DNA of 64,000 bases from an uncultured Micavibrio sp. Lineage in GTDB: Bacteria > Pseudomonadota > Alphaproteobacteria > Micavibrionales > UBA1664. Each line of letters starts with the position of its first letter. The first letter of the stretch is position 1. A program made the translations under genes and the position numbers. The stretch spans positions 34,989 through 98,988 of the forward strand of contig CAZHEE010000003.1 of the NCBI GenBank assembly GCA_964531715.1, given 5' to 3'. Positions 1-62,612 of this stretch are shown in pieces. Below the pieces are notes generated by a model that saw only the letters and a program-made list of their open reading frames with translations, had not been told where the DNA came from and ran no database searches.

Positions 1-1455
1 AATTCCGTTAATCTCTTCCTCGCTTAAACCCTTTTCGGCAAGGAGTGCGGCGAGGTATTTATTACGCACCGGGAATGACCCTGACAATGTTTTATGCGTA
101 TAGGCATTCGCGGCAATCGGCTCAATCCCCGGGGAAGCACCACCGCAAATGATTGAGATGGAGGCCGTTGGCGCAATCGCCATCTTATTAGAAAAACGCT
201 CCATAATACCGTAATCCGCCGCGTCCGGGCATGGCCCACGCTCATGCGCCAGCTTGACAGAGGCATCATCGGCTTGCCGCTTAATAAGTTGGAACATACG
301 ACGATTCCAGACCTTCGCCATCACTGATTCAAATGGAATCATTTTTGACTGAAGGAAAGAGTGGAAACCCATCACACCCAAACCGACAGAGCGTTCACGC
401 ATGGCGGAATATTTAGCCTTTGCAAAAGTATCGGGCGCCTTCTCAATAAAATCCTGAAGCACATTATCGAGCATCCGCATAATGTCCTCGATAAAGGTCG
501 GATGGTCATGCCATTCATCGAATTTTTCAAGATTGAGGGATGACAGGCAACAAACCGCGGTTCTGTCCTTACCGTCCTGGTCAATTCCTGTCGGCAACGT
601 AATTTCAGAACATAAATTCGACATCTTCACATTCAAACCGGCCATTTTATGATGATCTGGAATCGCTTTATTCACCGTATCAATATAAAGCAAATATGGC
701 TCACCTGTCTCAATACGCGCGGTCAGAATGCGAATCCATAAATCACGCGCACTGACCTTATCAATAATCGCATTATTATGGGGGGAGCGCAGCGCCCAGT
801 CATCATCATTGGCAACCGCATCCATGAAAGCATCAGGGATAAGCACGCCATGGTGAATGTTTAAGGCTTTCCGATTCGGGTCACCCCCTGTCGGGCGACG
901 CATCTCAACAAATTCTTCAATCTCAGGATGGGTCACATCCATATAAAGCGCGGCAGAGCCACGGCGGAGTGAGCCTTGAGAGATTGCCAATGTTTGCGAA
1001 TCCATCACTTTGATAAACGGCATCACACCGGACGTCTTTCCGTTACGTCCGACTTTCTCACCGATAGAGCGAATATTGGATACATTTGTGCCGATACCGC
1101 CACCACGCGCGGCAAGCCAGACATTTTCCTGCCATAAATCAACAATACCTTCGAGCGAATCTTGCATCTCATTCAAAAAGCAGGAAATCGGCATACCGCG
1201 ATTCGTGCCACCATTCGATAAAATCGGCGTTGCAGGCATGAACCATAAATTTGAGATATAATCATAAAGACGCTGTGCATGGGCATCATCATCACCATAG
1301 GTCATGGCAACACGGGCTATCAGCCCCTGAATCGTTTCACCCTCAAGCAAGTAACGATCATAAAGGGTCGCTTTCCCGAAAGTTGTGAAATTCTCGTCCC
1401 TCGCATCATCAATTTTGACCCGTGGGCCGCGTTCCATTTGTGCAACATCAAACAT
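1..1455 (-). CDS. nrdA: ribonucleoside-diphosphate reductase large subunit (class I), first 485 codons; the C-terminus lies beyond the window start
   Basis: My own minus-strand translation from the ATG at 1455-1453 gives MFDVAQMERGPRVKIDD...PATPILSNGGTNRGMPISCFLNEM...ARGGGIGTNVSNIRSIGE...NLCSEITLPTG...AVCCLSSLNLEKF. The frame stays open to position 1. It is missing from the ORF track because no stop codon falls in the window. These motifs are typical of RNR alpha chains. Confidence 0.85.
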   Translation of the reverse strand, partial: MFDVAQMERGPRVKIDDARDENFTTFGKATLYDRYLLEGETIQGLIARVAMTYGDDDAHAQRLYDYISNLWFMPATPILSNGGTNRGMPISCFLNEMQDSLEGIVDLWQENVWLAARGGGIGTNVSNIRSIGEKVGRNGKTSGVMPFIKVMDSQTLAISQGSLRRGSAALYMDVTHPEIEEFVEMRRPTGGDPNRKALNIHHGVLIPDAFMDAVANDDDWALRSPHNNAIIDKVSARDLWIRILTARIETGEPYLLYIDTVNKAIPDHHKMAGLNVKMSNLCSEITLPTGIDQDGKDRTAVCCLSSLNLEKFDEWHDHPTFIEDIMRMLDNVLQDFIEKAPDTFAKAKYSAMRERSVGLGVMGFHSFLQSKMIPFESVMAKVWNRRMFQLIKRQADDASVKLAHERGPCPDAADYGIMERFSNKMAIAPTASISIICGGASPGIEPIAANAYTHKTLSGSFPVRNKYLAALLAEKGLSEEEINGI

Positions 1456-1542
1456 AGTATATCCTTTCCCTCGTAACCTGCTTTTACAGTGGTTGTCTTA
1501 TCCCTATTTAAATACATGGAGGAGGGCGTTTTAAGTGCGAAA

Positions 1543-1590
1543 ACACAATCCCTAGTGCCTCTATACATACAAGGATACTATATCTCGTGG
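1543..1590 (-). promoter_or_regulatory. two candidate NrdR boxes upstream of nrdA
   Basis: ACACAATCCCTAGTGC (1543-1558) and ATACTATATCTCGTGG (1575-1590) both fit the ACAC-N8-GTGT type palindrome. Their starts are 32 bp apart, matching the tandem spacing known for NrdR operators. Each matches the consensus only partially. Confidence 0.4.
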
Positions 1591-1595
1591 TCAGG

Positions 1596-1624
1596 TCTAT
1601 AGGACTATATGCCTATTTGGTCAA
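1596..1624 (-). promoter_or_regulatory. predicted sigma70-type promoter of nrdA; the 15-nt motif sits in its spacer
   Basis: The minus strand reads TTGACC (1624-1619), then 17 nt, then TATAGA (1601-1596). The spacer contains TAGGCATATAGTCCT (plus coordinates 1601-1615). That differs by one base from the motif at 30269-30283 and 30807-30821. Confidence 0.45.
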
Positions 1625-1909
1625 TTTTATGGTTATGCACAGCGTGAAAAGGCGCGTTTCCGCCTGTAAGGGGATAAATAAAAAAATTTTATCCTCAAGG
1701 GGAAATCAGCATACTGTGATGACGAATCAGGAGAAATTAAAATTGTATGTTTTCACAAGAGGAAAATATTCAAAAAGTGTGATTTAAATCTCTCATATTT
1801 TCGGGAAGGATGCCTGAGTCCTTTTTAGTGTTAGTGGGGAAGAACATTAAGAGAAAGCAGGCACCCTACCGGAAAATATGATTGAAAATTAATGTAGCGC
1901 AAATTAAGT

Positions 1910-2176
1910 TTATGCCGACCTTCTTAACAAATGGTTATCAGCGTTCTCATCTGATGCATTATTTGCAGGTTTTTTCAAAATACTTTTTTCGACACTTAAT
2001 AAAGTGTCTTTTTCTGCGTCTAAGTAACGAACGACATCCATAAGTTCATCATAGCTCATAGACTTCACGTCTTGCTTGTAAGCTTTATCGGATGTCATCT
2101 CGAAATATATATTTTTATTACTCATAGCTATACTCAATCTTTTAAAATTTTCATAATAATATAGTAACTGAAACAT
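1910..2176 (-). CDS. hypothetical small protein in an AT-rich stretch
   Basis: ORF-track entry only. No recognisable motif and no clear RBS. Confidence 0.25.
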   Translation of the reverse strand: MFQLLYYYENFKRLSIAMSNKNIYFEMTSDKAYKQDVKSMSYDELMDVVRYLDAEKDTLLSVEKSILKKPANNASDENADNHLLRRSA

Positions 2177-2199
2177 ATTATCAAGTTTTATTTGTAACT

Positions 2200-2938
2200 A
2201 GGCTCAGGACTTACAAATATTAACCTTTAAGTATTTTTTACGGTTATAATTCACTTGTAAGAAAGAAGGATTTTATGAGTAATTTGTACCTGTTATCGGA
2301 CAGTCAAATGGATATTATATCAGGCTACTTGCCGCCCTCATGTGGTGTTGCACGTGTTGACTACAGGGTCAAGCCGTGCAACAGGTGATCGCCGTGTGAT
2401 TAGCGATATCATCTATGTTATAAAAAATGGATTGTGGTGGTGTGATGCGCCCAAAGACTATGGTCCTCATAAGACGCTTTATAACCGCTTTATCTGTTAG
2501 TTGCGCATAGGCGGTTAAATTCCAAACAGCTTGCGGTTGTTGATGGTTTGGGGCGACCTGTGTGCTTATATTTAAGCGCAGGGCAAGTCAGAGACCATAA
2601 AGGAGCGGAGGTTCTGCTAGATAAACTGCCCAAAACAACCGTCATATTAGCGAATAGAAGGTATGACAATGATGCGTTTCGAAATGAACTCAAATCAAAA
2701 GGTATCACACCCTGCATTCCTCCGCGCAAAAACCGCAAAATATAATATCAATACGATAAAAATCTCTATAACAACGCCACAAAAGCTTGTGCCCGCGAAG
2801 GCCGGTATCGAAAATATGTTCGGACGCCTCAAAGATGGGATGCGCATTTTCATGAGATACGACAGACAACCCCACACTTTCTTCTCCGCAATACAAAACG
2901 CCGCTACTCTCATCCTCTATTGTATGAGTCCTGCGCCT
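2200..2938 (+). mobile_element. degenerate IS5-family element (IS427/IS1031-like) with a broken transposase
   Basis: Terminal inverted repeats AGGCTCAGGACTTACAAA (2200-) and the reverse complement of TGTATGAGTCCTGCGCCT (-2938). Transposase pieces lie in at least three frames: MSNLYLLSDSQMDIISGYLPP..., DRRVISDIIYVIKNGLWWCDAPKDYGPHKTLYNRF, GRPVCLYLSAGQVRDHKGAEVLLDKLPKTTVILANRRYDNDAFRNELKSKGITPCIPPRKNRK and ENMFGRLKDGMRIFMRYDRQPHTFFSAIQNAATLILY. These are typical of DDE IS5-family transposases. The central part is missing. Confidence 0.75.
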
Positions 2939-3012
2939 GGATAAATATTTTAGTTATTAAATTGTTGCTAATGCCGTTGCTAGAATGTATATAGTATTGC
3001 TTATGTTGCAAA

Positions 3013-3099
3013 GGGCGTGTGGCGGAATTGGTAGACGCGGCGGACTCAAAATCCGCTGTCAGTAATGACTTGGGAGTTCGAGTCTCCCCACGCCCACCA
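3013..3099 (+). tRNA. tRNA-Leu (anticodon CAA), CCA encoded
   Basis: Manual cloverleaf. Acceptor GGGCGTG pairs with CACGCCC. Anticodon stem GCGGA/TCCGC with loop CTCAAAA. Long variable arm. T arm GGGAG-TTCGAGT-CTCCC. Discriminator A followed by CCA. Confidence 0.9.
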
Positions 3100-3110
3100 A
3101 AATAGCACAA

Positions 3111-3167
3111 GATTCAAAATCCAATTCATGTATGGGAGTAGGAGTTCGATTCTCCTCGGGGGCACCA
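3111..3167 (+). pseudogene. 3' fragment of a second, divergent tRNA-Leu(CAA); no 5' half
   Basis: GATTCAAAATCCAA..AGGAG-TTCGATT-CTCCT-CGGGGGC-A-CCA carries an anticodon loop, variable arm, T arm and 3' acceptor strand. The complementary 5' acceptor GCCCCCG is absent upstream. The fragment starts 12 nt after the intact tRNA. Confidence 0.7.
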
Positions 3168-3255
3168 AATTTTCTTTAATATTTTAAAACTCTTTTAAAG
3201 AATTTCTTTCATAATTTATATTCTGACATGAGTATTTAAAAAGGATTGAAGCATA

Positions 3256-3627: not shown

Positions 3628-6484
3628 ATGTCTGATGATGAGAATAAGGATATTTATCTGGTCGATGGCTCGGCTTACATTTTCCGTGCCTATCATGCTT
3701 TACCGCCTTTAACCAATAAGAATGGTGTTGTTATTAACGCTGTGCTTGGCTTTACTAACATGATGGTTAAGTTATTGCGCGAGATGAAGGCCCCCTATAT
3801 CGCCGTGATATTTGACGCCACGCGCAAGAATTTCCGCAATGATATCTATGATCAGTATAAGGTCAACCGCGATGATCCACCCGAGGATCTCGTTCCCCAA
3901 TTCCAACTAATTAGAGATTGCGTGACAGCTTTTGGAATGGAGCCGATTGAGATGGATGGGTTTGAGGCGGATGACCTTATCGCCACATATGCCCGTATTG
4001 CGACCGAACAAGGACGTAAAGTCACGATTGTCTCATCCGATAAAGACCTGATGCAGCTTATCAACGACACTGTCACAATGTATGACCCGATGAAGGGAAA
4101 AATGCTGGGCATTGCGGACGTGCAAGAAAAATTCGGCGTTTCGCCTGATAAAGTCGTTGATGTGCAGGCGTTGGCAGGGGATGCGATTGATAATATTCCG
4201 GGTGTACCTGGTATTGGGATTAAGACCGCCGCGCAACTGATTGAGGAATATGGTGACCTTGAAAGCCTTCTTTCGCGTGCCGAAGAAATCAAGCAACCGA
4301 AACGCCGTGAAACACTTATCAATCATGCCGAGGATGCACGTATTTCAATGAAGCTTGTGTCATTGGATGCGCAAGTTGATGTGCCGTATGACCTGAATGA
4401 TTTGGCCGTGCATGATACAAATACGGAAACACTGATTGCTTTTTTGGAAGAGCATGGGCTCAATTCTGTTCTTAAACGGCTTGGGCATGATGCACCGAGC
4501 CAGACAAGCAAACAAGACGCGCCCCAAAATGATTTTCCACCAATTGTGGATAATAAATATACGCTTATTCAAGACGTGAAAACGCTTGAAAAATGGCTGG
4601 CGCGGGCAAGCGAAACAGGCATATTATCCTTTGATACCGAAACAACGGCTTTGACCCCTGCCAAGGCAGACTTAGTCGGGATTTCGATTGCGAGCGAAGT
4701 CGGTAAGGCTGCCTATATTCCGTTTGCCCATAAAAGCGGCGAAGTCGATTTGCTTGGCGATGGCGGTGAAGAGATTCGGCAAATTGAGATGAGGCATGCA
4801 CTCTTGCTCCTCAAGCCTATCCTTGAAAATCCGGCCATTATTAAGATTGCACAAAATGCAAAATATGATGTTCAAGTTTTGGAGGGGGCTTATTCTTCCT
4901 TGTCATCCCCGCCCCCGAGCGGGGACCCGAGGGGAGAGGCCCCCGCTCAAGGCGGGGGTGACAATAGTATAAATATCTATCCCATAGACGACACCGATCG
5001 AGGTCGCGCCCTGCGACGACACCATGCTCCTCTCCTACACGCTTGAGGCAGGCCTACACGGGCATGGCATGGATGAGCTGTCCGAGTTGTATTTTAATCA
5101 CAAACCAGTCCCCTTTAAAGAAGTTGCAGGAACAGGAAAATCGCAGGTAACTTTTGATTATGTGAGCCTTGATAAGGCACTCGATTACGCTGCGGAGGAT
5201 GCGGATATAACCTTGCGCTTATGGCATATTTTACGCGAAAAACTCAATCAAACGCGCGGTGTGATTAGCGTTTATGAGCAAATGGAGCGTCCGCTTGTGC
5301 CCGTCATGGTGCGGATGGAGGCAAAAGGTATTATGGTTGACCGCGCATCATTGCGTGACATGAGCAATCAATTTGCAACAAAGCTTGCAACGCTTGAGGC
5401 GGATGTTCATGCTGAAGCTGGCTCGCCCTTTAATATCGGTTCACCTAAGCAAGTGGGACAGGTGTTGTTTGATCAAATGGGCTTACAAGGGGGTAAGAAA
5501 ACCAAAACGGGGGATTGGTCAACCAATGTTTCGATTTTGGAAGATTTGGCGGTGAGTAATGCTATTGTCCGTAAAATCCTCGATTATCGTGGTTTGTCAA
5601 AGCTGAAATCCACTTACACAGATGCGTTACAGGATCAAATTATCCCTGACACAGGGCGAGTCCATACATCCTTTTCGATGGCTGGAACGTCAACAGGGCG
5701 GCTGGCCTCTAGCGACCCTAACCTGCAAAATATTCCGATTAGGACAGAAGAAGGGCGCAAAATTCGGACGGCCTTTATCGCGCCTGAGGGCAAAAGCCTT
5801 GTTTCAATTGATTATTCCCAAGTTGAATTACGCCTTGTTGCCGCGATGGCGGATATTCCAAGGCTCAAACAAGCCTTCATAGACGGGCATGACATTCACG
5901 CGATTACGGCAAGCGAGGTGTTTGGCGTGCCGCTCGACAAAATGGATGGCGAAACACGGCGCAAGGCCAAGGCGATTAATTTCGGTATTGTCTATGGGAT
6001 TAGCGGTTACGGCCTCGGGCGGCAACTCGGGATTGAGGCAGGCGAAGCGGGCGAGTATATCAAGCTTTACTTCAATCGCTTTCCCGAGCTTGCACAATAT
6101 ATGGACGAAACCAAGGCGATCGCGCATGAACAAGGCTATGTTGAAACCTTATTCGGGCGCAAATGCTGGATTAAAGGGATTAAGGATAAGAATTATTCCA
6201 TCCGTTCAGGTGCGGAAAGGGCGGCGATTAATGCGCCGATTCAAGGGACAGCCGCCGATATTATTAAGCAAGCAATGATTAAAATTGACCGCGCAATTTT
6301 GGATGGAGAGATTGAGGCGGCAATGTTGCTGCAGGTTCATGATGAACTGATTTTCGAAATTGATGATGATAAGATTGAGAGTGAGTCGGCAAAGATTAAA
6401 ACCATCATGGAAAATATAATTGACCTTGATGTTCCTCTCATTGCCGATGCCGGCTCCGGCAAAAACTGGGATGATGCGCATTAA
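3628..6484 (+). CDS. polA: DNA polymerase I; reading frame broken between 4996 and 5023 (ORF-track pieces 3628..5046 and 5024..6484)
   Basis: 5'-nuclease N-terminus (YLVDGSAYIFRAYHALPPL), 3'-5' exonuclease region (LSFDTETTAL, AQNAKYD) and polymerase motifs (DYSQVELRL, RRKAKAINFGIVYG, QVHDELIFE). Frame 1 ends at 5046 and frame 2 continues from 5024. Confidence 0.92.
4881..4966. repeat. GC-rich palindromic element inserted in frame within polA
   Basis: Hairpin arms 4901-4924 and 4940-4963 form a 13-bp outer and an 8-bp inner helix. The element encodes EGAYSSLSSPPPSGDPRGEAPAQGGGDNS between the conserved AQNAKYDVQVL and INIYPIDDT. It is far more GC-rich than the surrounding gene. Confidence 0.7.
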
Positions 6485-6604
6485 ACCCTTCTCCCTCGGG
6501 AGAAGGTGCTGAGCATCGCGAAGCGGATGAGGGGTATAAAAACCAAATAGATTAAGCAACCCCTCACCCTAACCCTCTCCCCAGGGAGAGGGAACTAAGC
6601 GGTA
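6485..6604. repeat. composite GC-rich REP-like element filling the polA / 6605-6937 intergenic space
   Basis: Hairpins CCCTTCTCCCTCGGGAGAAGG (6486-6506) and CCCTCTCCCCAGGGAGAGGG (6573-6592), plus GAGGGGT (6529-6535) pairing with ACCCCTC (6559-6565). It shares the same core modules (CCCCTCACCC and CCCTCTCCCC..GGGGAGAGGG) as the element inside mtaB. Confidence 0.7.
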
Positions 6605-7012: not shown

Positions 7013-7079
7013 TATGGCGTCAATAAAATCATAGTGTTCTATTTTTGTTCCAAAGTCAAGTGGGAATCTGATAGTATCC

Positions 7080-7121
7080 CGTCATTGCCTGAATCTCGAC
7101 AGAGATTCTAAGGCAATCCAG
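7080..7121. repeat. hairpin repeat of the CGTCATT...AATCCAG family
   Basis: CGTCATTGCCT-loop-AGGCAATCCAG. Confidence 0.65.
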
Positions 7122-7142
7122 TTCATGGCTTTATATCATTTC

Positions 7143-7186
7143 TAGATTCCCTTAGAATTTTATAAATCAAATTCAGGGAATGACGA
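7143..7186. repeat. hairpin repeat of the same family, in opposite orientation
   Basis: TAGATTCCCT...AGGGAATGACGAG. This is the inverted partner of 7080-7121, giving a BIME-like pair. Confidence 0.6.
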
Positions 7187-14074: not shown

Positions 14075-15415
14075 ATGACCGCTACGCCTGAAATCCTGAC
14101 CTTCGGTTGCCGCCTGAATGCTTATGAGAGTGAGGTCATGCGTAAGCATGCCGAAAAGGCAGGGTTGGCAAATACCGTTATCGTTAACAGTTGCGCAGTC
14201 ACGAAAGAGGCTGAACGCTCTGTCCGTCAAGCCATCCGCCGAGCGCGTAAGAAAAACCCTGCCGCCAAGATCATCGTCACGGGCTGTGCCTCGCAGATTA
14301 ACCCTGAATCCTATGCCGCAATGGATGAGGTCGATCTGGTGGTCGGTAATGATTTGAAACTACAGGAGAGTGTTTGGGGGAATCTTAACCCCTCACCCGA
14401 TGTTGCTCACGCTCCATCACCCTCTCCCCGGGGAGAGGGAAAGCCGACCGAAGAGAGGCAGGGTGAGGGGATCAGCGATTATAAAAATAAAATCCTCATC
14501 AATAATATCATGGAAGTCGAGGAAACGGCGAGCCATCTGGTCGATGGTTTTGACGGGAAAGCGCGGGCTTTCCTGCAGGTTCAAAATGGGTGTGACCATC
14601 GCTGCACCTTTTGTATTATTCCATATGGGCGCGGTAATTCACGGAGTGTTCCGCTGGGCCAGATTGTCAAGAATGTTCGTCATCTGGTTGCAAAAGGCTT
14701 TAACGAAATTGTTTTAACGGGCGTTGATGTTACGTCATACGGCCCTGATTTACCCGGTAAGCCGACATTAGGACAGATGATAAAACGGCTTTTCGCGTTA
14801 GTGCCTGAATTGCCCCGCTTGCGCCTCTCCTCCCTTGACCCTGTCGAGATTGATGCGGATTTATGGTGGTTAATTGAGCATGAACATCGCTTTATGCCCC
14901 ATCTTCACCTGTCGTTACAAGCGGGGGATGACATGGTTTTAAGGCGGATGAAACGCCGCCATTTACGCGATGATGTGATTAAGGTCTGCGATAAGGCTCG
15001 GCGGCTTCGCTCTGATATTGTGTTTGGTGCGGATATTATTGCCGGTTTTCCAACCGAAACGGATGCTATGTTTCAAAACACGCTGAATATTGTTGAGAAA
15101 TGCGATTTGACATTCCTGCACGTCTTCCCTTACTCGGAACGTGAGGGGACACCTGCCGCCAAAATGCCGCAAGTTGACCCCGCTGTTCGAAAAGAACGCG
15201 CGAAATTACTCCGCGAGGCAGGCAAAAAACAAATATTGGAGTTTAATCAGGCTCAAATCGGCAAGATAACGAGTGCGATTATTGAACAAAACGGCCATGG
15301 CAGAACAGATCATTTCGCAGAAGTGAAACTTGATAAAAAGTTAGAGGCAGGGCGTTTAGTTCAGATTAAAATCACTGACTTTATTGACGGACAGTTGATG
15401 GGTGAGGTTTTATAA
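14075..15415 (+). CDS. mtaB: radical-SAM methylthiotransferase, MtaB-like (tRNA t6A37 methylthiotransferase), carrying an in-frame repeat insertion
   Basis: EILTFGCRLNAYESEVM N-terminal MTTase domain. Radical SAM cluster motif VQNGCDHRCTFCIIPYGRG. TRAM-like C-terminus. Confidence 0.85.
   Translation: MTATPEILTFGCRLNAYESEVMRKHAEKAGLANTVIVNSCAVTKEAERSVRQAIRRARKKNPAAKIIVTGCASQINPESYAAMDEVDLVVGNDLKLQESVWGNLNPSPDVAHAPSPSPRGEGKPTEERQGEGISDYKNKILINNIMEVEETASHLVDGFDGKARAFLQVQNGCDHRCTFCIIPYGRGNSRSVPLGQIVKNVRHLVAKGFNEIVLTGVDVTSYGPDLPGKPTLGQMIKRLFALVPELPRLRLSSLDPVEIDADLWWLIEHEHRFMPHLHLSLQAGDDMVLRRMKRRHLRDDVIKVCDKARRLRSDIVFGADIIAGFPTETDAMFQNTLNIVEKCDLTFLHVFPYSEREGTPAAKMPQVDPAVRKERAKLLREAGKKQILEFNQAQIGKITSAIIEQNGHGRTDHFAEVKLDKKLEAGRLVQIKITDFIDGQLMGEVL
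14389..14470. repeat. GC-rich palindromic element in frame inside mtaB
   Basis: The outer stem CCCCTCACCC (14390-14399) / GGGTGAGGGG (14461-14470) encloses CCCTCTCCCCGGGGAGAGGG (14420-14439). It translates as NPSPDVAHAPSPSPRGEGKPTEERQGEGI in the linker before the radical-SAM core. Confidence 0.7.
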
Positions 15416-26751: not shown

Positions 26752-27112
26752 GATGCGGGGTGTGGGCGTAAAGTCAAGATACTTCGTCATTGCATTTTTC
26801 ATTTAGGAATAAGTGTAATTCAGACTTTAAAAATATTGAAATGCTAGGGTCTACCCTTATAGATAAGGATATAATTTAATGGTTTAATAAATTAAAGAAG
26901 GAGTTGTTAAAACATGTCCCGCTATTTTTATCTTTCCGACACATAATGGTCAGCAGGGGATTTGGGAATACAGCTCGGGCTTCAACGCTATTTTGACTTG
27001 CCCGACCGACCGAATGAGAAAGAAACACTTTTTATGCAATCGCATTTTGAAGGCAAAGAAACTGCGGCTTCCTTCCTCCTCTGGGCTCTCAAGGGGGATA
27101 AATTACATTAAA

Positions 27113-29579: not shown

Positions 29580-30233
29580 TTACTGACTCACCCAAAGCAC
29601 GCGTGCGATCCAAACCACCTGTTCAGGCTCGAAAACCAAATCATCATGCGTAGGATTTAAAGACTGAAGCTCTATTTTCGTATTCGTGCGGCGTTTGAGT
29701 TGCTTCGCCATGACTTGCCCATCTCTTGTCTTGACAATCACGCGGTCACCACGGCGTATGCCTGAAGAGGGTGAAACGACCAGAATATCCCCATCACGAT
29801 AGAGTGGCTCCATCGAATCACCGCTCACCTCAAGGGCGTAATTCGTATCATCTTTCGGCGTGAAGCCGGGCAACTCAACAAAATCCCACCCTTCCCCTTG
29901 AGGAAATCCTGAATCGGTGAAATAGCCTTGCGCCCCTGCCTGCACACATCCGATAACAGGAATCGCCTTGGCAGAGCGTGAAGTCGTATTAATTTCCGTG
30001 GTTTGAATTTGGATGAATGTCATAAATTCACTCATCGTGATATTGGTCACGGCAAGGATTTTTGATACGGATTCGGTGGATGGCCATCGCGGTTTACCTT
30101 CAGGGCTCATCCGTTTGCTTTTATTAAACGAGGTGGGGTCAAGCCCTGCTTTCCGCGCCAAGCCTGAAGTTGAAAAACCCGCGCTATCGGCCAGCTTATC
30201 AATCGCGGCCCATATATCTTGATGAGAAAACAT
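29580..30233 (-). CDS. CI/LexA-like transcriptional repressor (XRE-type HTH plus S24 self-cleaving peptidase domain)
   Basis: N-terminal HTH region (FSTSGLARKAGLDPTSFNKSKR). C-terminal S24 catalytic Ser motif (GDSMEPLYRDGDILVV) and Lys (VMAKQLKRR). The N-terminus is not the canonical LexA winged helix. Confidence 0.85.
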   Translation of the reverse strand: MFSHQDIWAAIDKLADSAGFSTSGLARKAGLDPTSFNKSKRMSPEGKPRWPSTESVSKILAVTNITMSEFMTFIQIQTTEINTTSRSAKAIPVIGCVQAGAQGYFTDSGFPQGEGWDFVELPGFTPKDDTNYALEVSGDSMEPLYRDGDILVVSPSSGIRRGDRVIVKTRDGQVMAKQLKRRTNTKIELQSLNPTHDDLVFEPEQVVWIARVLWVSQ

Positions 30234-30344: not shown

Positions 30345-30455
30345 ACAAATATAAAAACTGTCATCTCGACCAAGCGTAGCGCGCGGAAGGATCTGAATAT
30401 TTTAACGCGAAGATAAGAAGTTTAAGGGAAGTAGACACGAAGATTTTCAAAAAAT

Positions 30456-30682
30456 CCGTTATTGCATGGCTTGACCATGCAATCCAAAAAATAAAACGCA
30501 AAGTCACGCAAAGTTCTTATTCGTCATTACACGGCTGGACCGTGTAATCCAGCTTAGTATTTTCTGGATTGCACGTATTCATAAATGAAACGTGCAATGA
30601 CGGATATTTTAAAGCACCTCCATGTTCTCTGTGCTTTCTGTGGTAAAAAGCAATGGATTACGGCCTTCGCCGTAATGACGAG
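30456..30682. repeat. cluster of four hairpin repeats of the CGTCATT-stem-loop-stem-AATCCAG family
   Basis: CCGTTATTGCATGG-CTTGA-CCATGCAATCCAAA (30456-30486); CGTCATTACACGG-CTGGA-CCGTGTAATCCAG (30522-30552); inverted copies CTGGATTGCACG...CGTGCAATGACGG (30565-30603) and TGGATTACGGC-CTTC-GCCGTAATGACGAG (30654-30682). Confidence 0.75.
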
Positions 30683-30806
30683 CAAAAACTTAGTGCCCTC
30701 AGTGTTTCAAATGACTATAGATTACACAGTCCTTTAATTATAAACCCCACAACTGGTGCGGGGTTGCGATGAAATAATATCCATAAGTAACCTATCTCTA
30801 ATATGG

Positions 30807-44009: not shown

Positions 44010-44627
44010 ATGATGGGTATTATTACGAAAATTCAGGATGTAACGCATAATATCCGTATCCTGACCATTCAAATGGATGGGGCGGAACCTTATCGTTTTA
44101 CGGCAGGGCAATATACGACACTCTCCGTTGATGGGTTTGAAGCGCGCCCCTTCTCGATTGCCAGCGCACCGCGAGATGACAACAGTTTCGATATTCATAT
44201 TCGTAATTCTGGTTACAATATTAGTGACAGGCTTTGCACTGATGCGAAAATATGTGATGCGGTTGAAGTCGGACAAGCGCAAGGGTCTTTGGCACTTCAT
44301 AAGAATAAAAACCATCATATTTTTATTGCTGGCGGCACAGGAATTACGCCCTTTCTCTCTATTTTAGAAGCTCATCCGAATATAAGAGGGCAACTTTATT
44401 GGGGCATGCAAAGCACACATGACTTTTACATTCAACCGACTTACGACAATTTAGAGATCTTTTATTGCACCGATATTTATCCGATTGACGCGTTTTTGGA
44501 TAAAAAAGATCAGATAATAAAAGATTATAGTGTCTATCTCAGTGGACCACCTGCGATGGTTCAAGATTCAAAAGCAAAGCTTTTGGCTTTTGGGTATGAA
44601 GAAGAAAATATTATTTATGATAGGTAA
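44010..44627 (+). CDS. ferredoxin-NADP reductase-like FAD/NAD(P)-binding oxidoreductase
   Basis: FAD motif RPFSIAS and NAD(P) motif IAGGTGITP; 205 aa. Confidence 0.75.
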   Translation: MMGIITKIQDVTHNIRILTIQMDGAEPYRFTAGQYTTLSVDGFEARPFSIASAPRDDNSFDIHIRNSGYNISDRLCTDAKICDAVEVGQAQGSLALHKNKNHHIFIAGGTGITPFLSILEAHPNIRGQLYWGMQSTHDFYIQPTYDNLEIFYCTDIYPIDAFLDKKDQIIKDYSVYLSGPPAMVQDSKAKLLAFGYEEENIIYDR

Positions 44628-44723
44628 GATATTTAAGGGACTTATATACTTAACTAGCCAAAAATAACTTGACTATCCATTAAATTTTGGCTAGTATATT
44701 ATTATATTAACAAGGATATAATA

Positions 44724-45650
44724 ATGGATAAGCCCGAAACACTAAGTCTTTACGAATTTTTTCAACAATTTCCGAATGAGGAATCAGCAAGACAATACTT
44801 TGAAACAAAGCGTTGGGGTGACACACCGCATTGTGCTCATTGCGGTTCTGTTGAAGTATCAGAATGTAAAGATCTCAAGCCAATGCCATATCGTTGTAAA
44901 GCTTGCCGTAAACATTTTAGCGTTCGTACTGGCACAGTATTGGCGGAATCACGCTTGCCATTACACAAATGGTTAATGGCTATCTATATGCTTACAACGG
45001 CTCGTAAGGGCTTACCATCCACACAAATGGCAAAAGAATTGGGCGTTACTCAAAAAACAGCATGGTTTTTAGCGCAAAGAATCCGTGAAACTTGGACGAA
45101 TAATAAGGACAATAACAAAGGCAATCACATTCAAGTTGATGAAACATATGTAGGCGGAAAAGAAAGCAACAAACACGCATCTAAAAAATTGCGTCAAGGA
45201 CGTGGTTCTATTGGCAAGACAGCCGTTATCGGTTCAATTAATGAAAACTGCAAAGTAAATGCAAAGGTGACACAGGATGTTAAACGTCAATCATTACATG
45301 GCTTTGTATCTGATAGCGCGAATAAGGGCGCAACGGTTGTAACTGATAACTTTCCTGCATATCGTGGTTTAAATAACCGTGGTTACGCTCACAAAGTTGT
45401 AAATCACTCCGTAGGCGAATACATTCGCAATAATGCACATACAAACGGCATTGAGAGCTTTTGGGCTTTATTGAAACGTGGTTACTATGGTGTTTATCAT
45501 TACATGAGTGCAAAGCACCTAAACAGATACGTTAATGAATTTTCGTTCCGCCACAATACAGCACAAATTGGCACTATGGACTTCATCGGAATGACAATCG
45601 AGAGAATGAACAACAAACGACTAACATACAAGGAATTGATAAATGGCTAA
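44724..45650 (+). CDS. IS1595-family (ISXO2-like) DDE transposase with an N-terminal zinc ribbon
   Basis: CAHCGS...YRCKACRKHFSVRTGT zinc ribbon, HTH (STQMAKELGVTQKTAWFL), QVDETYVGGKE, TDNFPAYRGL, and HTNGIESFWALLKRGYYGVYHYMSAKHLNRYVNEFSFRHN. Confidence 0.9.
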   Translation: MDKPETLSLYEFFQQFPNEESARQYFETKRWGDTPHCAHCGSVEVSECKDLKPMPYRCKACRKHFSVRTGTVLAESRLPLHKWLMAIYMLTTARKGLPSTQMAKELGVTQKTAWFLAQRIRETWTNNKDNNKGNHIQVDETYVGGKESNKHASKKLRQGRGSIGKTAVIGSINENCKVNAKVTQDVKRQSLHGFVSDSANKGATVVTDNFPAYRGLNNRGYAHKVVNHSVGEYIRNNAHTNGIESFWALLKRGYYGVYHYMSAKHLNRYVNEFSFRHNTAQIGTMDFIGMTIERMNNKRLTYKELING

Positions 45651-46689
45651 AAAAGATGGAATTGAACCTATTGACGACGATTTTGATAACGTTGTTGAAG
45701 CGGTAGTAACACCAGAGAAAGGCTTAAAGGAAATCACCTCTAAAGCTAGCAAAATAAAGGCTTTAGCACCAAAATCAGGCAGTAAGGAAATCAGCTCACA
45801 AGCTAGCCTAAATTTAGGCATCGATGTTGAGCGAGAAGTTAATGGAATAGGCATGGGTGTTCTAGGTGATGGGACGCCTTACCTAAACCAACGTGGTCTA
45901 GCGGCTTTATGTGGTGTTCAAAACGCTCACATAGGAACTATTAGTTCACAATGGAATGAAGAGCCGTTAAAACCTCGAATCGCCTCAATTAAAAAGGTGT
46001 TAGAAAAAGCAGGATATTTTACTAGTTCAGCGCATATTGAAATTGAGCATAAAGGAATTACGCATTTTTGTTACCCAGCAGAAGTTTGTTTAGCAATTCT
46101 TGAATATTACTCCTTTGATGCGGGGGCAAATTGCCAACCTCAGGCAAGAGATAACTATAGAATTTTGGCTGGCACACAGTTACGCGAAATGATTTATAGC
46201 CAAGTTGGCTATGACCCAACTGGCCGCTATAAAGACCGCTTTGAAAAATGGCACGAAAGAATTGAGTTAAATCATCAATCTGCTCCAAAGGGCTTTTTCT
46301 CCGTATTCAACGAAGCGCACACAATAATCTATGAAATGATCCAAGCAGGTGCCGACATTGGCGAAAAAACAATCGTTGATATATCTATAGGAAAACATTG
46401 GGGACCGTATTGGGATAAAAATGGTTTAGCCACTCAATATGGGGCAAGAATTAAATACCCGCATAGATACCCAGACTCGCATCCGCAGGCAAAAAGCAAT
46501 CCGCAAGAGGCTTGGTGCTATCCTTTGGCAGCTCTAGGGCATTATAGGGAGTGGTTGCAAAACACTTACATTGAGCAAGGAAAATTTGCGAAATATATTG
46601 ATGGCAAGGTTAAGAAAAAAGAATTACCGCCATCTGTGGCGCAATTAGCTGTTGCGGCAGTAGAGCAAAATTTAATCGAGGGGTCTTAA
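45643..46689 (+). CDS. IS passenger protein; tentative P63C/Bro-like phage-type DNA-binding protein
   Basis: Overlaps the transposase stop by 8 nt. GVLGDGTPYLNQRGLAALCGV resembles the GVLSDGTRVLTQRG pattern I recall from P63C-domain proteins. This assignment is from memory only. Confidence 0.6.
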   Translation: MAKKDGIEPIDDDFDNVVEAVVTPEKGLKEITSKASKIKALAPKSGSKEISSQASLNLGIDVEREVNGIGMGVLGDGTPYLNQRGLAALCGVQNAHIGTISSQWNEEPLKPRIASIKKVLEKAGYFTSSAHIEIEHKGITHFCYPAEVCLAILEYYSFDAGANCQPQARDNYRILAGTQLREMIYSQVGYDPTGRYKDRFEKWHERIELNHQSAPKGFFSVFNEAHTIIYEMIQAGADIGEKTIVDISIGKHWGPYWDKNGLATQYGARIKYPHRYPDSHPQAKSNPQEAWCYPLAALGHYREWLQNTYIEQGKFAKYIDGKVKKKELPPSVAQLAVAAVEQNLIEGS

Positions 46690-46701
46690 CCCCTCTTTTT
46701 T
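46678..46701 (+). terminator. rho-independent terminator inside the IS right end
   Basis: GAGGGGT-CTTA-ACCCCTC followed by TTTTTT. It overlaps the passenger stop codon. Confidence 0.75.
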
Positions 46702-46741
46702 AACTTAAATGGCTAATTAAGTATATAGATCCCATATTTAA

Positions 46742-46812
46742 CTATGAGTAGGATGAGGAATATGATTTTTAATGACTAAAAATACTCCTCATACACTTTA
46801 TTACTCATAGTT
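46742..46812. repeat. long imperfect hairpin adjoining the IS insertion site
   Basis: CTATGAGTA..ATGAGGAATAT ... ATACTCCTCAT..TACTCATAG. Confidence 0.45.
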
Positions 46813-58603: not shown

Positions 58604-59944
58604 ATGACTAAAGATAAAAAGCAGATATATAAGCCGAAACCCGTTTCAGGTTTTCCCGAATGGTTGCCGGAGGAGCGATTGGTAGAGCAAAAATGGCTCG
58701 ACCATATTCGGCGCGTTTTTGAATCCTATGGCTACACCAATATAGAGACCCCTGCCGCAGAAGAAATTAATGTCCTGACCGCCAAGGGGGAGACGGATAA
58801 GGAAATTTATACACTCACACGCCTGCAAGCGGATGAAAGTGACACGAAAGAAGCGCGAATTGGGCTTCATTTCGACCAGACAGTACCGCTTGCCCGTTAT
58901 ACGGCCATGCATTTTAATGAGCTGGACTTCCCGTTCAAACGCTATGCCATGCAAAAAGTCTGGCGTGGGGAGAGACCTCAACTTGGGCGCATGAGGGAGT
59001 TTTATCAGTGCGATATTGATGTCATTCATGTTGATCACTTGCCGCTGCATTTCGATGCGGAAATGCCCGCCGTCATTTATGAAGTTTTTAAGGGACTTGA
59101 TATCGGGCGGATTCAGATACGGATTTCAAATCGGAAGATTTTGCTTGGGCTGTTAGAGGCTCTGAACATAAATGATGTTGTGCCGATTACACGCACCGTT
59201 GATAAGCTTGATAAACTTGGGAAGGATGAGGTCAGCCGCCTCTTGGTTAAAGAATGTGGTCTAAGTGAAGAGCAAGCCTCATGCATTTTAGAGCTTGTTA
59301 CACTTCAAATAACAACGCAATCATTCGATGTATTGCTTCACGATTTCATTGCTCGCAATGACGTCATTGCGAGGAGCGATAGCGACGCGGCAATCCATAC
59401 AATGCAAGAAGGCATAGAAGAACTCTCTTTCATACTCGACCAACTCTCACACCTGCCCGAGGGGGCGGTTGTTGCAGATTTATCTATCGTACGCGGCTTG
59501 GATTACTACACTGGAACCGTTTATGAAACGCGTCTGCTCGATATTCCCGAATTCACCTCCAGTGTGTGTTCAGGCGGTCGCTATGATGATTTGGCAGGAA
59601 GCTATATTAACAAGCACCTGCCTGGCGTTGGTATTTCAATCGGATTTACGCGCCTGTTCGATGTATTGCGTCATAATGGATATATAAAAACGGATAAGAA
59701 ATGCCCGACAGATATCCTTGTGATTTTACCTGAAGAAGACATGCGCACAAAAGCGCAAGACCACGCCGCAACCCTGCGCAAACAAGGTAAAAATGTTGAG
59801 GTATATCACGCCCCTCAAAAAATCGGGAAGCAAATTGCCTATGCCGAAAAGAAAGGTATTCCTTATGTTTACTTCCCTGACTTAGGCGAAATGAAAAACC
59901 TTGAAACAGGTGAACAATCAGAATACAACTTGAACAGTCGATAA
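58604..59944 (+). CDS. hisS: histidine--tRNA ligase
   Basis: GFPEWLPEE N-terminus, class II motifs (MQKVWRGERPQLGRMREFYQCDID; GGRYDDL) and an anticodon-binding C-terminus. Confidence 0.9.
   Translation: MTKDKKQIYKPKPVSGFPEWLPEERLVEQKWLDHIRRVFESYGYTNIETPAAEEINVLTAKGETDKEIYTLTRLQADESDTKEARIGLHFDQTVPLARYTAMHFNELDFPFKRYAMQKVWRGERPQLGRMREFYQCDIDVIHVDHLPLHFDAEMPAVIYEVFKGLDIGRIQIRISNRKILLGLLEALNINDVVPITRTVDKLDKLGKDEVSRLLVKECGLSEEQASCILELVTLQITTQSFDVLLHDFIARNDVIARSDSDAAIHTMQEGIEELSFILDQLSHLPEGAVVADLSIVRGLDYYTGTVYETRLLDIPEFTSSVCSGGRYDDLAGSYINKHLPGVGISIGFTRLFDVLRHNGYIKTDKKCPTDILVILPEEDMRTKAQDHAATLRKQGKNVEVYHAPQKIGKQIAYAEKKGIPYVYFPDLGEMKNLETGEQSEYNLNSR
59352..59400. repeat. hairpin-repeat sequence embedded in frame in hisS
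   Basis: Perfect 22-bp palindrome CTCGCAATGAC|GTCATTGCGAG (59352-59373), followed by GAGCGATAGCGACGCGGCAATCCATAC. It translates as ARNDVIARSDSDAAIHT. Confidence 0.65.
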
Positions 59945-62222: not shown

Positions 62223-62499
62223 TCAATCTATCCTTTATAAAATACAAAGTAAAAATTATATTAGCTTGCTTATATCAGAAGATCATAAAAAAGTGAATAT
62301 TTTTATAATCTTTATTCAAATTCGTAGTGAATTATTTTTAAAACGTTTTTTATAGTCATAGAGTTTTATCGTAAATATAATAAATTTTGGGTTTAAGTAT
62401 TTAAGAATTAACATTTTAAGTGTTTATAGAGAATTTTGTAACATTGAGCTTTATTTTACGACTTTTGTGAGGCGGTATACATGGCAATATACTTCTTGA

Positions 62500-62612
62500 C
62501 TTGAGTTTGTTTCGAAACGCATCGCTATGTGATATGATAGGCAAGCCCACACTTTCCTCTCTGCAATACAAATCGACGCCACCGTTATCTTTTATTTATG
62601 AGTCCTGAGCTT
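62500..62612 (+). mobile_element. 3'-terminal fragment of a second copy of the IS5-family element
   Basis: ATGTGATATGATAGGCAAGCCCACACTTTCCTCTCTGCAATACAAA...TTTATGAGTCCTGAGCTT aligns with 2851-2938 (ATGAGATACGACAGACAACCCCACACTTTCTTCTCCGCAATACAAA...TGTATGAGTCCTGCGCCT). Confidence 0.7.

Follow-up and report, generated by a model that had tools for sequence, protein, structure and literature searches.

The window analysed here is a stretch of 64,000 nucleotides from an uncultured Micavibrio sp. (GenBank assembly GCA_964531715.1, contig CAZHEE010000003.1). It contains a polA gene, encoding DNA polymerase I (Pol I), that is split and that carries a GC-rich hairpin within its 3'-5' exonuclease region (Table 1). 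The gene consists of two open reading frames (ORFs), each in another frame, and the frame is broken 32 nt past the hairpin. Apart from this junction both halves are intact and all invariant Pol I residues are kept, and the N half, the C half and the first 30 residues past the junction have an identical nearest clade. The hairpin is the most GC-rich island of the 64-kb window (88% versus 43.8% overall) and lies in a gene of about 44% GC with a GC3 of 0.49. Two further features were seen immediately upstream of it: the 60 nt preceding the hairpin are unusually AT-rich (32% GC), and the Exo II KYD is followed by V (4867-4872), whereas all 29 near-clade orthologues have W at this position (KYDWQ).

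Table 1 Features of the split polA gene and the intergenic hairpin cluster. Positions are those of the window; R1 is the covariance model described in the text.
Feature	Positions	Strand	Description	Evidence
polA N-terminal ORF	3628-5046	+	472 aa; has the 5' nuclease, motifs Exo I and Exo II, the insert and copy 1; last 17 codons out of frame	
polA C-terminal ORF	5024-6484	+	486 aa; start is the native Met of DDTM; Exo III and intact polymerase domain	
polA insert	4888-4962	+	75 nt, 25 codons, AYSSLSSPPPSGDPRGEAPAQGGGD; absent from all orthologues; borders movable by a few nt	Alignment with 120 orthologues and Klenow
Left arm	4900-4933	+	TTGTCA-TCCCCGC-ccccga-GCGGGGA-CCCGAG; NTS/SRM-type unit; perfect 7-bp stem	R1, 35 bits, E 4.4e-8
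Right arm, inverted	4932-4964	-	TTGTCA-CCCCCGC-cttga-GCGGGGG-CCTCTC; perfect 7-bp stem	R1, 34.5 bits, E 6.2e-8
AT-rich tail	4965-4977	+	tagtataaatatc, after TGACAA	Flank comparison
Copy 1	4969-4995	+	ATA AAT ATC TAT CCC ATA GAC GAC ACC = INIYPIDDT; upstream frame; AT-rich codons	11.2 bits, P 4e-5
Single G	4996	+	Turns the 27-nt unit into 28 nt and shifts the frame	Direct reading
Copy 2	4997-5023	+	ATC GAG GTC GCG CCC TGC GAC GAC ACC = IEVAPCDDT; downstream frame, runs on into MLLSY	19.1 bits, P <5e-6
Run of 18 G/C-ending codons across the junction	4987-5040	+	Next longest run in the gene is 9	
Intergenic cluster, three GTCAT-hairpin-ATCCAG arms	30521-30681	+ and -	30521-30555 (+), 30561-30603 (-), 30650-30681 (-)	R1, E 0.014, 0.17 and 3.4e-5

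The polA hairpin is an insertion

The translation of the upstream ORF runs in frame from AQNAKYDVQVL through EGAYSSLSSPPPSGDPRGEAPAQGGGDNS to INIYPIDDT and places the extra residues directly after the Exo II motif (NAKYD). We found 120 orthologues with reconstructed Pol I, the closest of them from marine metagenomes and the best having 78% identity. The spacing from QxL to the conserved I was exactly four residues in 120 of 120, and none had the 25 extra residues. In the E. coli Klenow fragment the site has 11 residues, versus 35 in the Pol I of the window. The first-pass annotation, which was made from the sequence alone, had described an insertion of about 90 nt, rather than a native loop, at a site where Pol I normally has only a few residues, and had stated that the insertion keeps the frame. 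The orthologue alignment bears out all of this but the length: the extra material is 75 nt (4888-4962), and the frame runs on into the genuine Pol I segment INIYPIDDT. Hence, as judged from the alignment, the polA hairpin is an insertion and not a native loop.

The element is open in three of its six frames and thus in-frame survival requires no special design. In an AlphaFold2 model of the Klenow-like part of a hypothetical repaired protein (alignment A2; mean pLDDT 89), the insert was predicted as coil (pLDDT 49-69) between a helix (residues 108-122) and a strand (150-152), both well predicted. The modelled peptide is compatible with a tolerated loop. A search of the insert peptide against 1.84 billion representative proteins gave only 13 weak matches. 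Of these we inspected six, all of them either ASPTFTGDPKAPTP repeats of phage tail fibres or an unrelated repeat protein, and discarded them as false positives.

The hairpin is an inverted doublet of two similar units

The palindrome proper is 65 nt long (4900-4964), has the terminal inverted repeats TTGTCA...TGACAA, and folds through an outer helix of 14 bp and an inner helix of 8 bp, in agreement with the pairing of 4901-4924 with 4940-4963 proposed in the first-pass annotation. As RNA the fold had a free energy of -55 kcal/mol (z -4.24), which was equalled by 0 of 200 shuffled sequences, and as single-stranded DNA a free energy of -25.4 kcal/mol (z -5.3). The minimum free energy structure pairs the two arms with each other. 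Both arms are near-copies of one 25-nt unit, TTGTCAYCCCCGCCNNNGAGCGGGG, with loops of 5-6 nt. Both begin TTGTCA and in both the base 3' of the palindrome is C (GCGGGGA then C on the left, GCGGGGG then C on the right). The unit, composed of GTCA, a YCCCGC stem, a short loop, GCGGGR and C, has the architecture of the Neisseria NTS/dRS3 repeat and of the Ssn-related motifs (SRM; PMC11893778), in which GTCA is likewise followed by a CCCGC stem rich in Y, a short loop, GCGGG, A or G and an invariant C (NTS, CGTCATTCCCGCGMAVGCGGGAATCYRG).

AT-rich tails similar to that found downstream of the polA palindrome accompany the copies within ORFs at loci L042 and L053 and copies outside of ORFs at L026, L067, L023, L030 and L009, and thus the tail may be part of the element. 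Another type of GC-rich hairpin, CCCTCTCCCC(N)GGGGAGAGGG with flanks CCCTAACCC/CACCC, lies directly past the polA stop codon (6484-6594) and again at 14414-14441, and the loop of the polA element contains GGGGAGAGG, which is related to it.

Related units are dispersed in many phyla

When the 22-base arm pattern TTGTCAYCCCCGCCNNNGAGCGGGG was scanned against metagenomes and GTDB species representatives (596-Gb genome set), it matched 52 metagenome loci and 22 species-representative loci. By our own arithmetic the chance expectation in 596 Gb is about 0.1. The genome matches were in metagenome-assembled genomes (MAGs) of Fibrobacter, in the alphaproteobacterial MAG CSBr16_124 (four contigs), in Reyranellaceae, in a Rickettsiales MAG, in Labrenzia/Roseibium and in gammaproteobacterial MAGs. 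In about 30 cases the units formed doublets, with the second unit inverted and situated 30-120 nt after the first and TGTCA...TGACA at the ends.

We aligned 46 arms from other organisms, chosen for GTCA plus a perfect stem (alignment A1). GTCA, itself a selection criterion, and the C after the palindrome were invariant in all 46, and the stem varied with compensation. A covariance model built solely from arms of other organisms (R1) matched both polA arms (Table 1) and, upon search of 447 kb of other fetched loci, gave 186 arms, with up to 12 or more in some loci or contigs. Small GIY-YIG ORFs are present in two contigs with multiple hairpins, L037 and L056. By these matches the polA arms are shown to belong to a multi-copy hairpin family that occurs in many phyla, and the TTGTCAYCCCCGCCNNNGAGCGGGG loci together with the R1 scores uphold the earlier proposal that the element belongs to a dispersed family of palindromic repeats. 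Within the window the GC-rich core was found only once, both at three mismatches or fewer and with the repeat finder. The polA element gave only sub-threshold noise with Rfam and blastn of plasmids gave no match.

Within the window the three arms at 30.5 kb (Table 1) belong to the family of the polA arms, with different stems. The spacer in which they lie (30350-30700), between a LexA-like gene (29580-30233) and phage-like genes, has GTCAT hairpin units oriented both ways, at least three and probably five or six in number, reminiscent of neisserial intergenic mosaic elements (NIME) or of BIME. One of these units (30563-30602) shows 85% complementarity to another at 26785-26824, where an EVE-domain gene begins. 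The spacer between polA and putA, 2.1 kb downstream of the polA element, contains AT-rich inverted CGTCATT(G/C)CCT...AGG(G/C)AATC(C/T)AG units with long internal loops (7079-7186). This pair has the GTCAT...ATCYAG frame seen at 30.5 kb and scored weakly with R1 (E about 1-2).

Copies are found in frame within other genes

The arms of the fetched loci lie mostly outside long ORFs: 20% were spanned by an open frame of at least 200 aa, versus 68% of random positions. Some copies, like that in polA, are within genes. An in-frame doublet at L042 splits the RNase H endonuclease domain of UvrC and accounts for about 41 extra residues relative to PDB 3c65, and another at L053 lies in MurF. In Fibrobacter MAGs (L045, 10340-13291, and L058) a 984-aa topoisomerase has three in-frame hairpin-encoded P(R/A)(S/K)E(A/P)GMT motifs, DPRSEAGMTS, DPRSEPGMTN and SPAKPGMTN, a case of repeated in-frame colonisation of a single gene. 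An imperfect direct repeat, GATATTAAGG / GATAATTAAGG, lies on either side of the uvrC insertion (1360-1500 of L042), which also has additional non-palindromic sequence on both sides, including a pyrimidine-rich flank in common with the murF copy, and therefore the full element may exceed the palindrome in length.

A diverged duplicate of a Pol I segment breaks the frame beside the hairpin

The 28-mer that breaks the polA frame had been taken in the first-pass annotation for a foreign one. The frame break stands, since the two ORFs are in different frames, but the 28-mer encodes IEVAPCDDT. We scored the segments with a profile of six orthologous columns, using 200,000 random GC-rich 18-mers as the null. 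The score of IEVAPC (19.1 bits) was reached by none of these, and the identical hexapeptide is present in orthologues P0055, P0069 and P0073. INIYPI was closest to the near-clade INV[SA]PI. MAFFT aligned window positions 4997-5023 onto the orthologue DNA. As IEVAPCDDT scores as a Pol I segment, the 28-mer is a second, diverged copy of the adjacent INIYPIDDT. The single G between the copies makes the period 28 nt, which breaks the frame and splits polA into two ORFs. Copy 1 is also a genuine Pol I segment and thus, whichever copy is native, the in-frame insertion stands for the allele that carries the hairpin.

The two copies match at 17 of 27 nt. All ten mismatches fall within the first 18 nt, the last nine being identical, and nine of the ten have G or C in copy 2 and A or T in copy 1. 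The second copy opens with GATC. We conclude that the polA split is a separate rearrangement adjoining the hairpin. The following origins of the duplicate were ruled out: decay of an in situ duplicate, because both gene halves are otherwise intact with their invariant residues; a gross chimera of two organisms, because one nearest clade is common to the N half, the C half and the 30 post-junction residues; and a transposon excision footprint with a 9-bp target-site duplication, because the 19 nt between the repeats encode a Pol I hexapeptide.

Other observations in the window

A hairpin-unit-like sequence, GCTCGCAATGAC followed by GTCATTGCGAGGAGCGATAGCGACGCGGCAATCCAT and giving IARNDVIARSDSDAAIH, was seen at 59341-59400 in the variable insertion domain of a HisRS ORF (58604-59944). 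We did not accept it as an insertion: it accounts for about six extra residues relative to PDB 3net, lies in a variable domain and had an R1 E value of 0.6. Rearranged copies of a segment of about 260 nt (74-78% identity) are found near both ends of the window (2671-2950 and 62360-62600). One of them adjoins tRNA-Leu(CAA) at 3013-3099, and one frame resembles the C-terminal part of an IS5-type transposase, a putative assignment made by reading. At 44627-46743, inverted repeats of 34 nt (44627-44660 and 46710-46743) enclose two ORFs, one for an IS1595-family transposase (44724-45650; Pfam DDE_Tnp_IS1595, 3e-39) and the other at 45643-46689. Positions 1-3250 have no ORF of more than 100 aa in about 3 kb and no Rfam match other than the tRNA, which was the only Rfam match in the whole window. 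This suggests that the segment is degraded or non-coding DNA.

Relationship to known repeat classes

SRM is an imperfect hairpin-forming palindrome of 20-50 nt present in many copies per genome, and Ssn genes (GIY-YIG, cd10448) are often flanked by it (PMC11893778). Among the genomes with more than 300 elements are those of Rickettsia (PMC11893778). The Neisseria GIY-YIG nuclease SsnA binds the NTS hairpin as single-stranded DNA and cuts about 3 nt 5' of GTCA, the critical positions being the three bases 5' of the palindrome (for cleavage) and the C just 3' of it (the most critical for binding) (PMC11893778). The enzyme cuts incoming single-stranded DNA beside NTS hairpins and thereby shifts recombination end points to these sites (PMC11893778). 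The words "intragenic", "intergenic" and "open reading" are absent from the main text of that report. The window has two arms of the polA subtype and three related ones. The polA family resembles SRM in being multi-copy across the loci of other organisms, in its presence in many phyla and in its occurrence together with small GIY-YIG genes in two contigs. The polA arms have the GTCA, the short hairpin palindrome and the 3' C of SRM, but not its degenerate string. They differ in having a CCCCGC stem with a CCNGA-type loop of 5-6 nt, in forming a tight inverted doublet in frame within coding sequence and in lying in a window without ssnA.

REPINs are composed of two inverted repeat units that, together with a spacer, form a long hairpin, and are mobilised by RAYT transposases (PMC3116915, PMC3337134). 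The polA element is likewise a non-autonomous inverted doublet that folds into a long hairpin. However, REPINs are extragenic and linked to RAYT genes, whereas the polA copy lies within a gene and the 64 kb showed no RAYT. Rickettsia palindromic elements (RPEs) are selfish palindromic repeats of about 150 bp found in frame in unrelated housekeeping genes of Rickettsia, where the encoded peptide is compatible with the protein fold (PMC10969869). As an in-frame coding palindrome that adds 25 codons and has relatives in uvrC, murF and a topoisomerase gene, the polA element behaves similarly, but it is 65-90 nt long, very GC-rich and hosted by a marine alphaproteobacterium, as compared with the published description of RPEs. 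The first-pass annotation had called the element RPE-like. This holds for behaviour, given the in-frame copies at L042, L053 and L045/L058, whereas strict membership of the RPE families is unsupported, given length and host. The 30.5-kb spacer with its differently stemmed GTCAT hairpins in both orientations resembles neisserial intergenic mosaic elements and BIME-like clusters, but the hairpins of that cluster are intergenic, whereas in polA one doublet stands alone within a gene. Of the features of miniature inverted-repeat transposable elements, the polA element has terminal inverted repeats and no flanking direct repeat was seen. Overall, we place the polA element in the NTS/SRM-REPIN class of mobile hairpin repeats, with RPE-like behaviour.

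The most probable history of the locus

The explanation that we favour, with a probability of roughly 0.72, is that the polA hairpin is a non-autonomous mobile REPIN-like doublet of NTS/SRM-type units, beside which two polA alleles have been joined illegitimately. The element would have entered polA after the Exo II helix and ahead of the next DDT strand. An enzyme specific for hairpins and encoded at another site of the genome would move or process its units in single-stranded form, the candidates being an Ssn-type GIY-YIG nuclease and a RAYT-like transposase, and the in-frame copies in essential genes would be those permitted by selection. The most likely cause of the duplication would be an illegitimate, out-of-register join of two different polA alleles next to the hairpin, and as both polA halves are otherwise intact, such a join would be recent.

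Several results weigh against this explanation. The published SRM string, HGTCWYN(0-2)YYVSBRHN(0-5)WNVSBRGN(0-2)RNCYNB, has no literal match in the polA element: the left arm is two substitutions away and the right arm one, a miss of 1-2 positions that is due to the CCCCGC stem and the 5-6-nt loop. Since the arms of alignment A1 were chosen for perfect stems, the covariation of these stems is in part circular. Among the scanned ORFs of the window there is no ssnA/GIY-YIG gene and no RAYT/Y1-transposase gene, and we infer the mobility of the element from its distribution. By reading of the sequence no direct repeat or target-site duplication flanks the 75-nt insert. Donor DNA for either Pol I copy was not found, the three IEVAPC orthologues matching copy 2 at 19-22 of 27 nt.

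The strongest competitor specifies the last step of the favoured explanation more closely, taking hairpin and duplication together as a recombination scar: a fragment of another polA allele, cut at or near the hairpin or GATC, would have been joined out of register by homology-facilitated illegitimate recombination. The confinement of the differences between the copies to the first 18 nt, their GC-to-AT direction, the GATC that opens copy 2 and the 18-codon G/C-ending run across the junction are as expected of such a scar, and Neisseria SsnA moves recombination end points beside NTS hairpins (PMC11893778). However, no donor sequence was found, and the 30 post-junction residues are of the same clade as the remainder of the gene, so any foreign tract must be very short. 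We regard this version as possible but tentative.

Less likely is a one-base sequencing or assembly error at G4996, in which case the gene would have an in-frame 102-nt insertion (the hairpin peptide plus INIYPIDDT) before IEVAPCDDT. Removal of one base does give a single 976-codon ORF, both halves of which are intact with the invariant Pol I residues present, but G4996 lies outside any homopolymer and the error-free product would have a tandem duplicate strand beside the catalytic DDT, an arrangement seen in none of the orthologues (n=120).

That the element is an RPE in the strict sense seems improbable. A palindrome in frame in a housekeeping gene, encoding a peptide predicted to be a tolerated loop, is RPE-like behaviour, and the presence of Rickettsia among the genomes with more than 300 SRM elements indicates that RPEs and SRMs may overlap. 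Nevertheless, size and host (about 150 bp and Rickettsia, PMC10969869, versus 65-90 nt and a marine alphaproteobacterium) argue otherwise, and we found no literature that connects RPEs with GIY-YIG nucleases.

We consider it very improbable that programmed recoding allows polA to be expressed whole, whether through a +1 frameshift or through a hop of the ribosome across the 28-nt gap, from ACC at 4993-4995 to ACC at 5021-5023. The GAC GAC ACC sequences at take-off (4987-4995) and landing (5015-5023) are identical and the resulting junction, DDT-MLLSY, would be perfect for Pol I. However, of the hallmarks of T4 gene 60-type bypass (matched codons, a stop or hungry codon after take-off and a take-off stem-loop) only the matched codons are present: take-off is followed by no stop or known hungry codon, and the structure of the gap region is not unusual (z 0.12). 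Nor was a slippery site for a +1 shift seen, and the gap is more simply explained as a duplicated Pol I segment. Bypass, though equally improbable, would yield an intact Pol I carrying the hairpin-encoded loop, and polA would not be dead. If true, a bacterial chromosome would have a counterpart to the bypassing of T4 gene 60 or of mitochondrial "byp", situated beside a mobile GC-rich hairpin.

Finally, a native lineage-specific Pol I surface loop that is palindromic by chance would be in frame and predicted as a loop, as the insert is, but is effectively refuted by its absence from 120 of 120 orthologues including the closest, by its 88% GC within a 44% GC gene and by the match of both arms (E about 5e-8) to a model from unrelated organisms.

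Significance

Under the favoured explanation, a mobile doublet beside an illegitimate join of polA alleles, the kind of repeat is already known, although the Ssn/NTS hairpin repeats were characterised only in 2025 (PMC11893778, Nat Commun). What is new is the in-frame occurrence of such repeats in DNA-metabolism genes across phyla and a rearrangement beside a hairpin. For annotation, the locus illustrates that a "split" polA can conceal a mobile repeat and a duplication. The out-of-register Pol I duplicate is a concrete and testable rearrangement adjoining such a hairpin. If the less exotic alternative to ribosome bypass is true, the duplication would be the first footprint found in nature of an intragenic SRM hairpin that sets recombination end points. 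The polA doublet and its relatives in uvrC, murF and topoisomerase genes link the RPE-style "coding palindromes" with the SRM/REPIN literature, and suggest that repeats of this class colonise essential DNA-metabolism genes in frame as a general trait and not as an oddity of Rickettsia.

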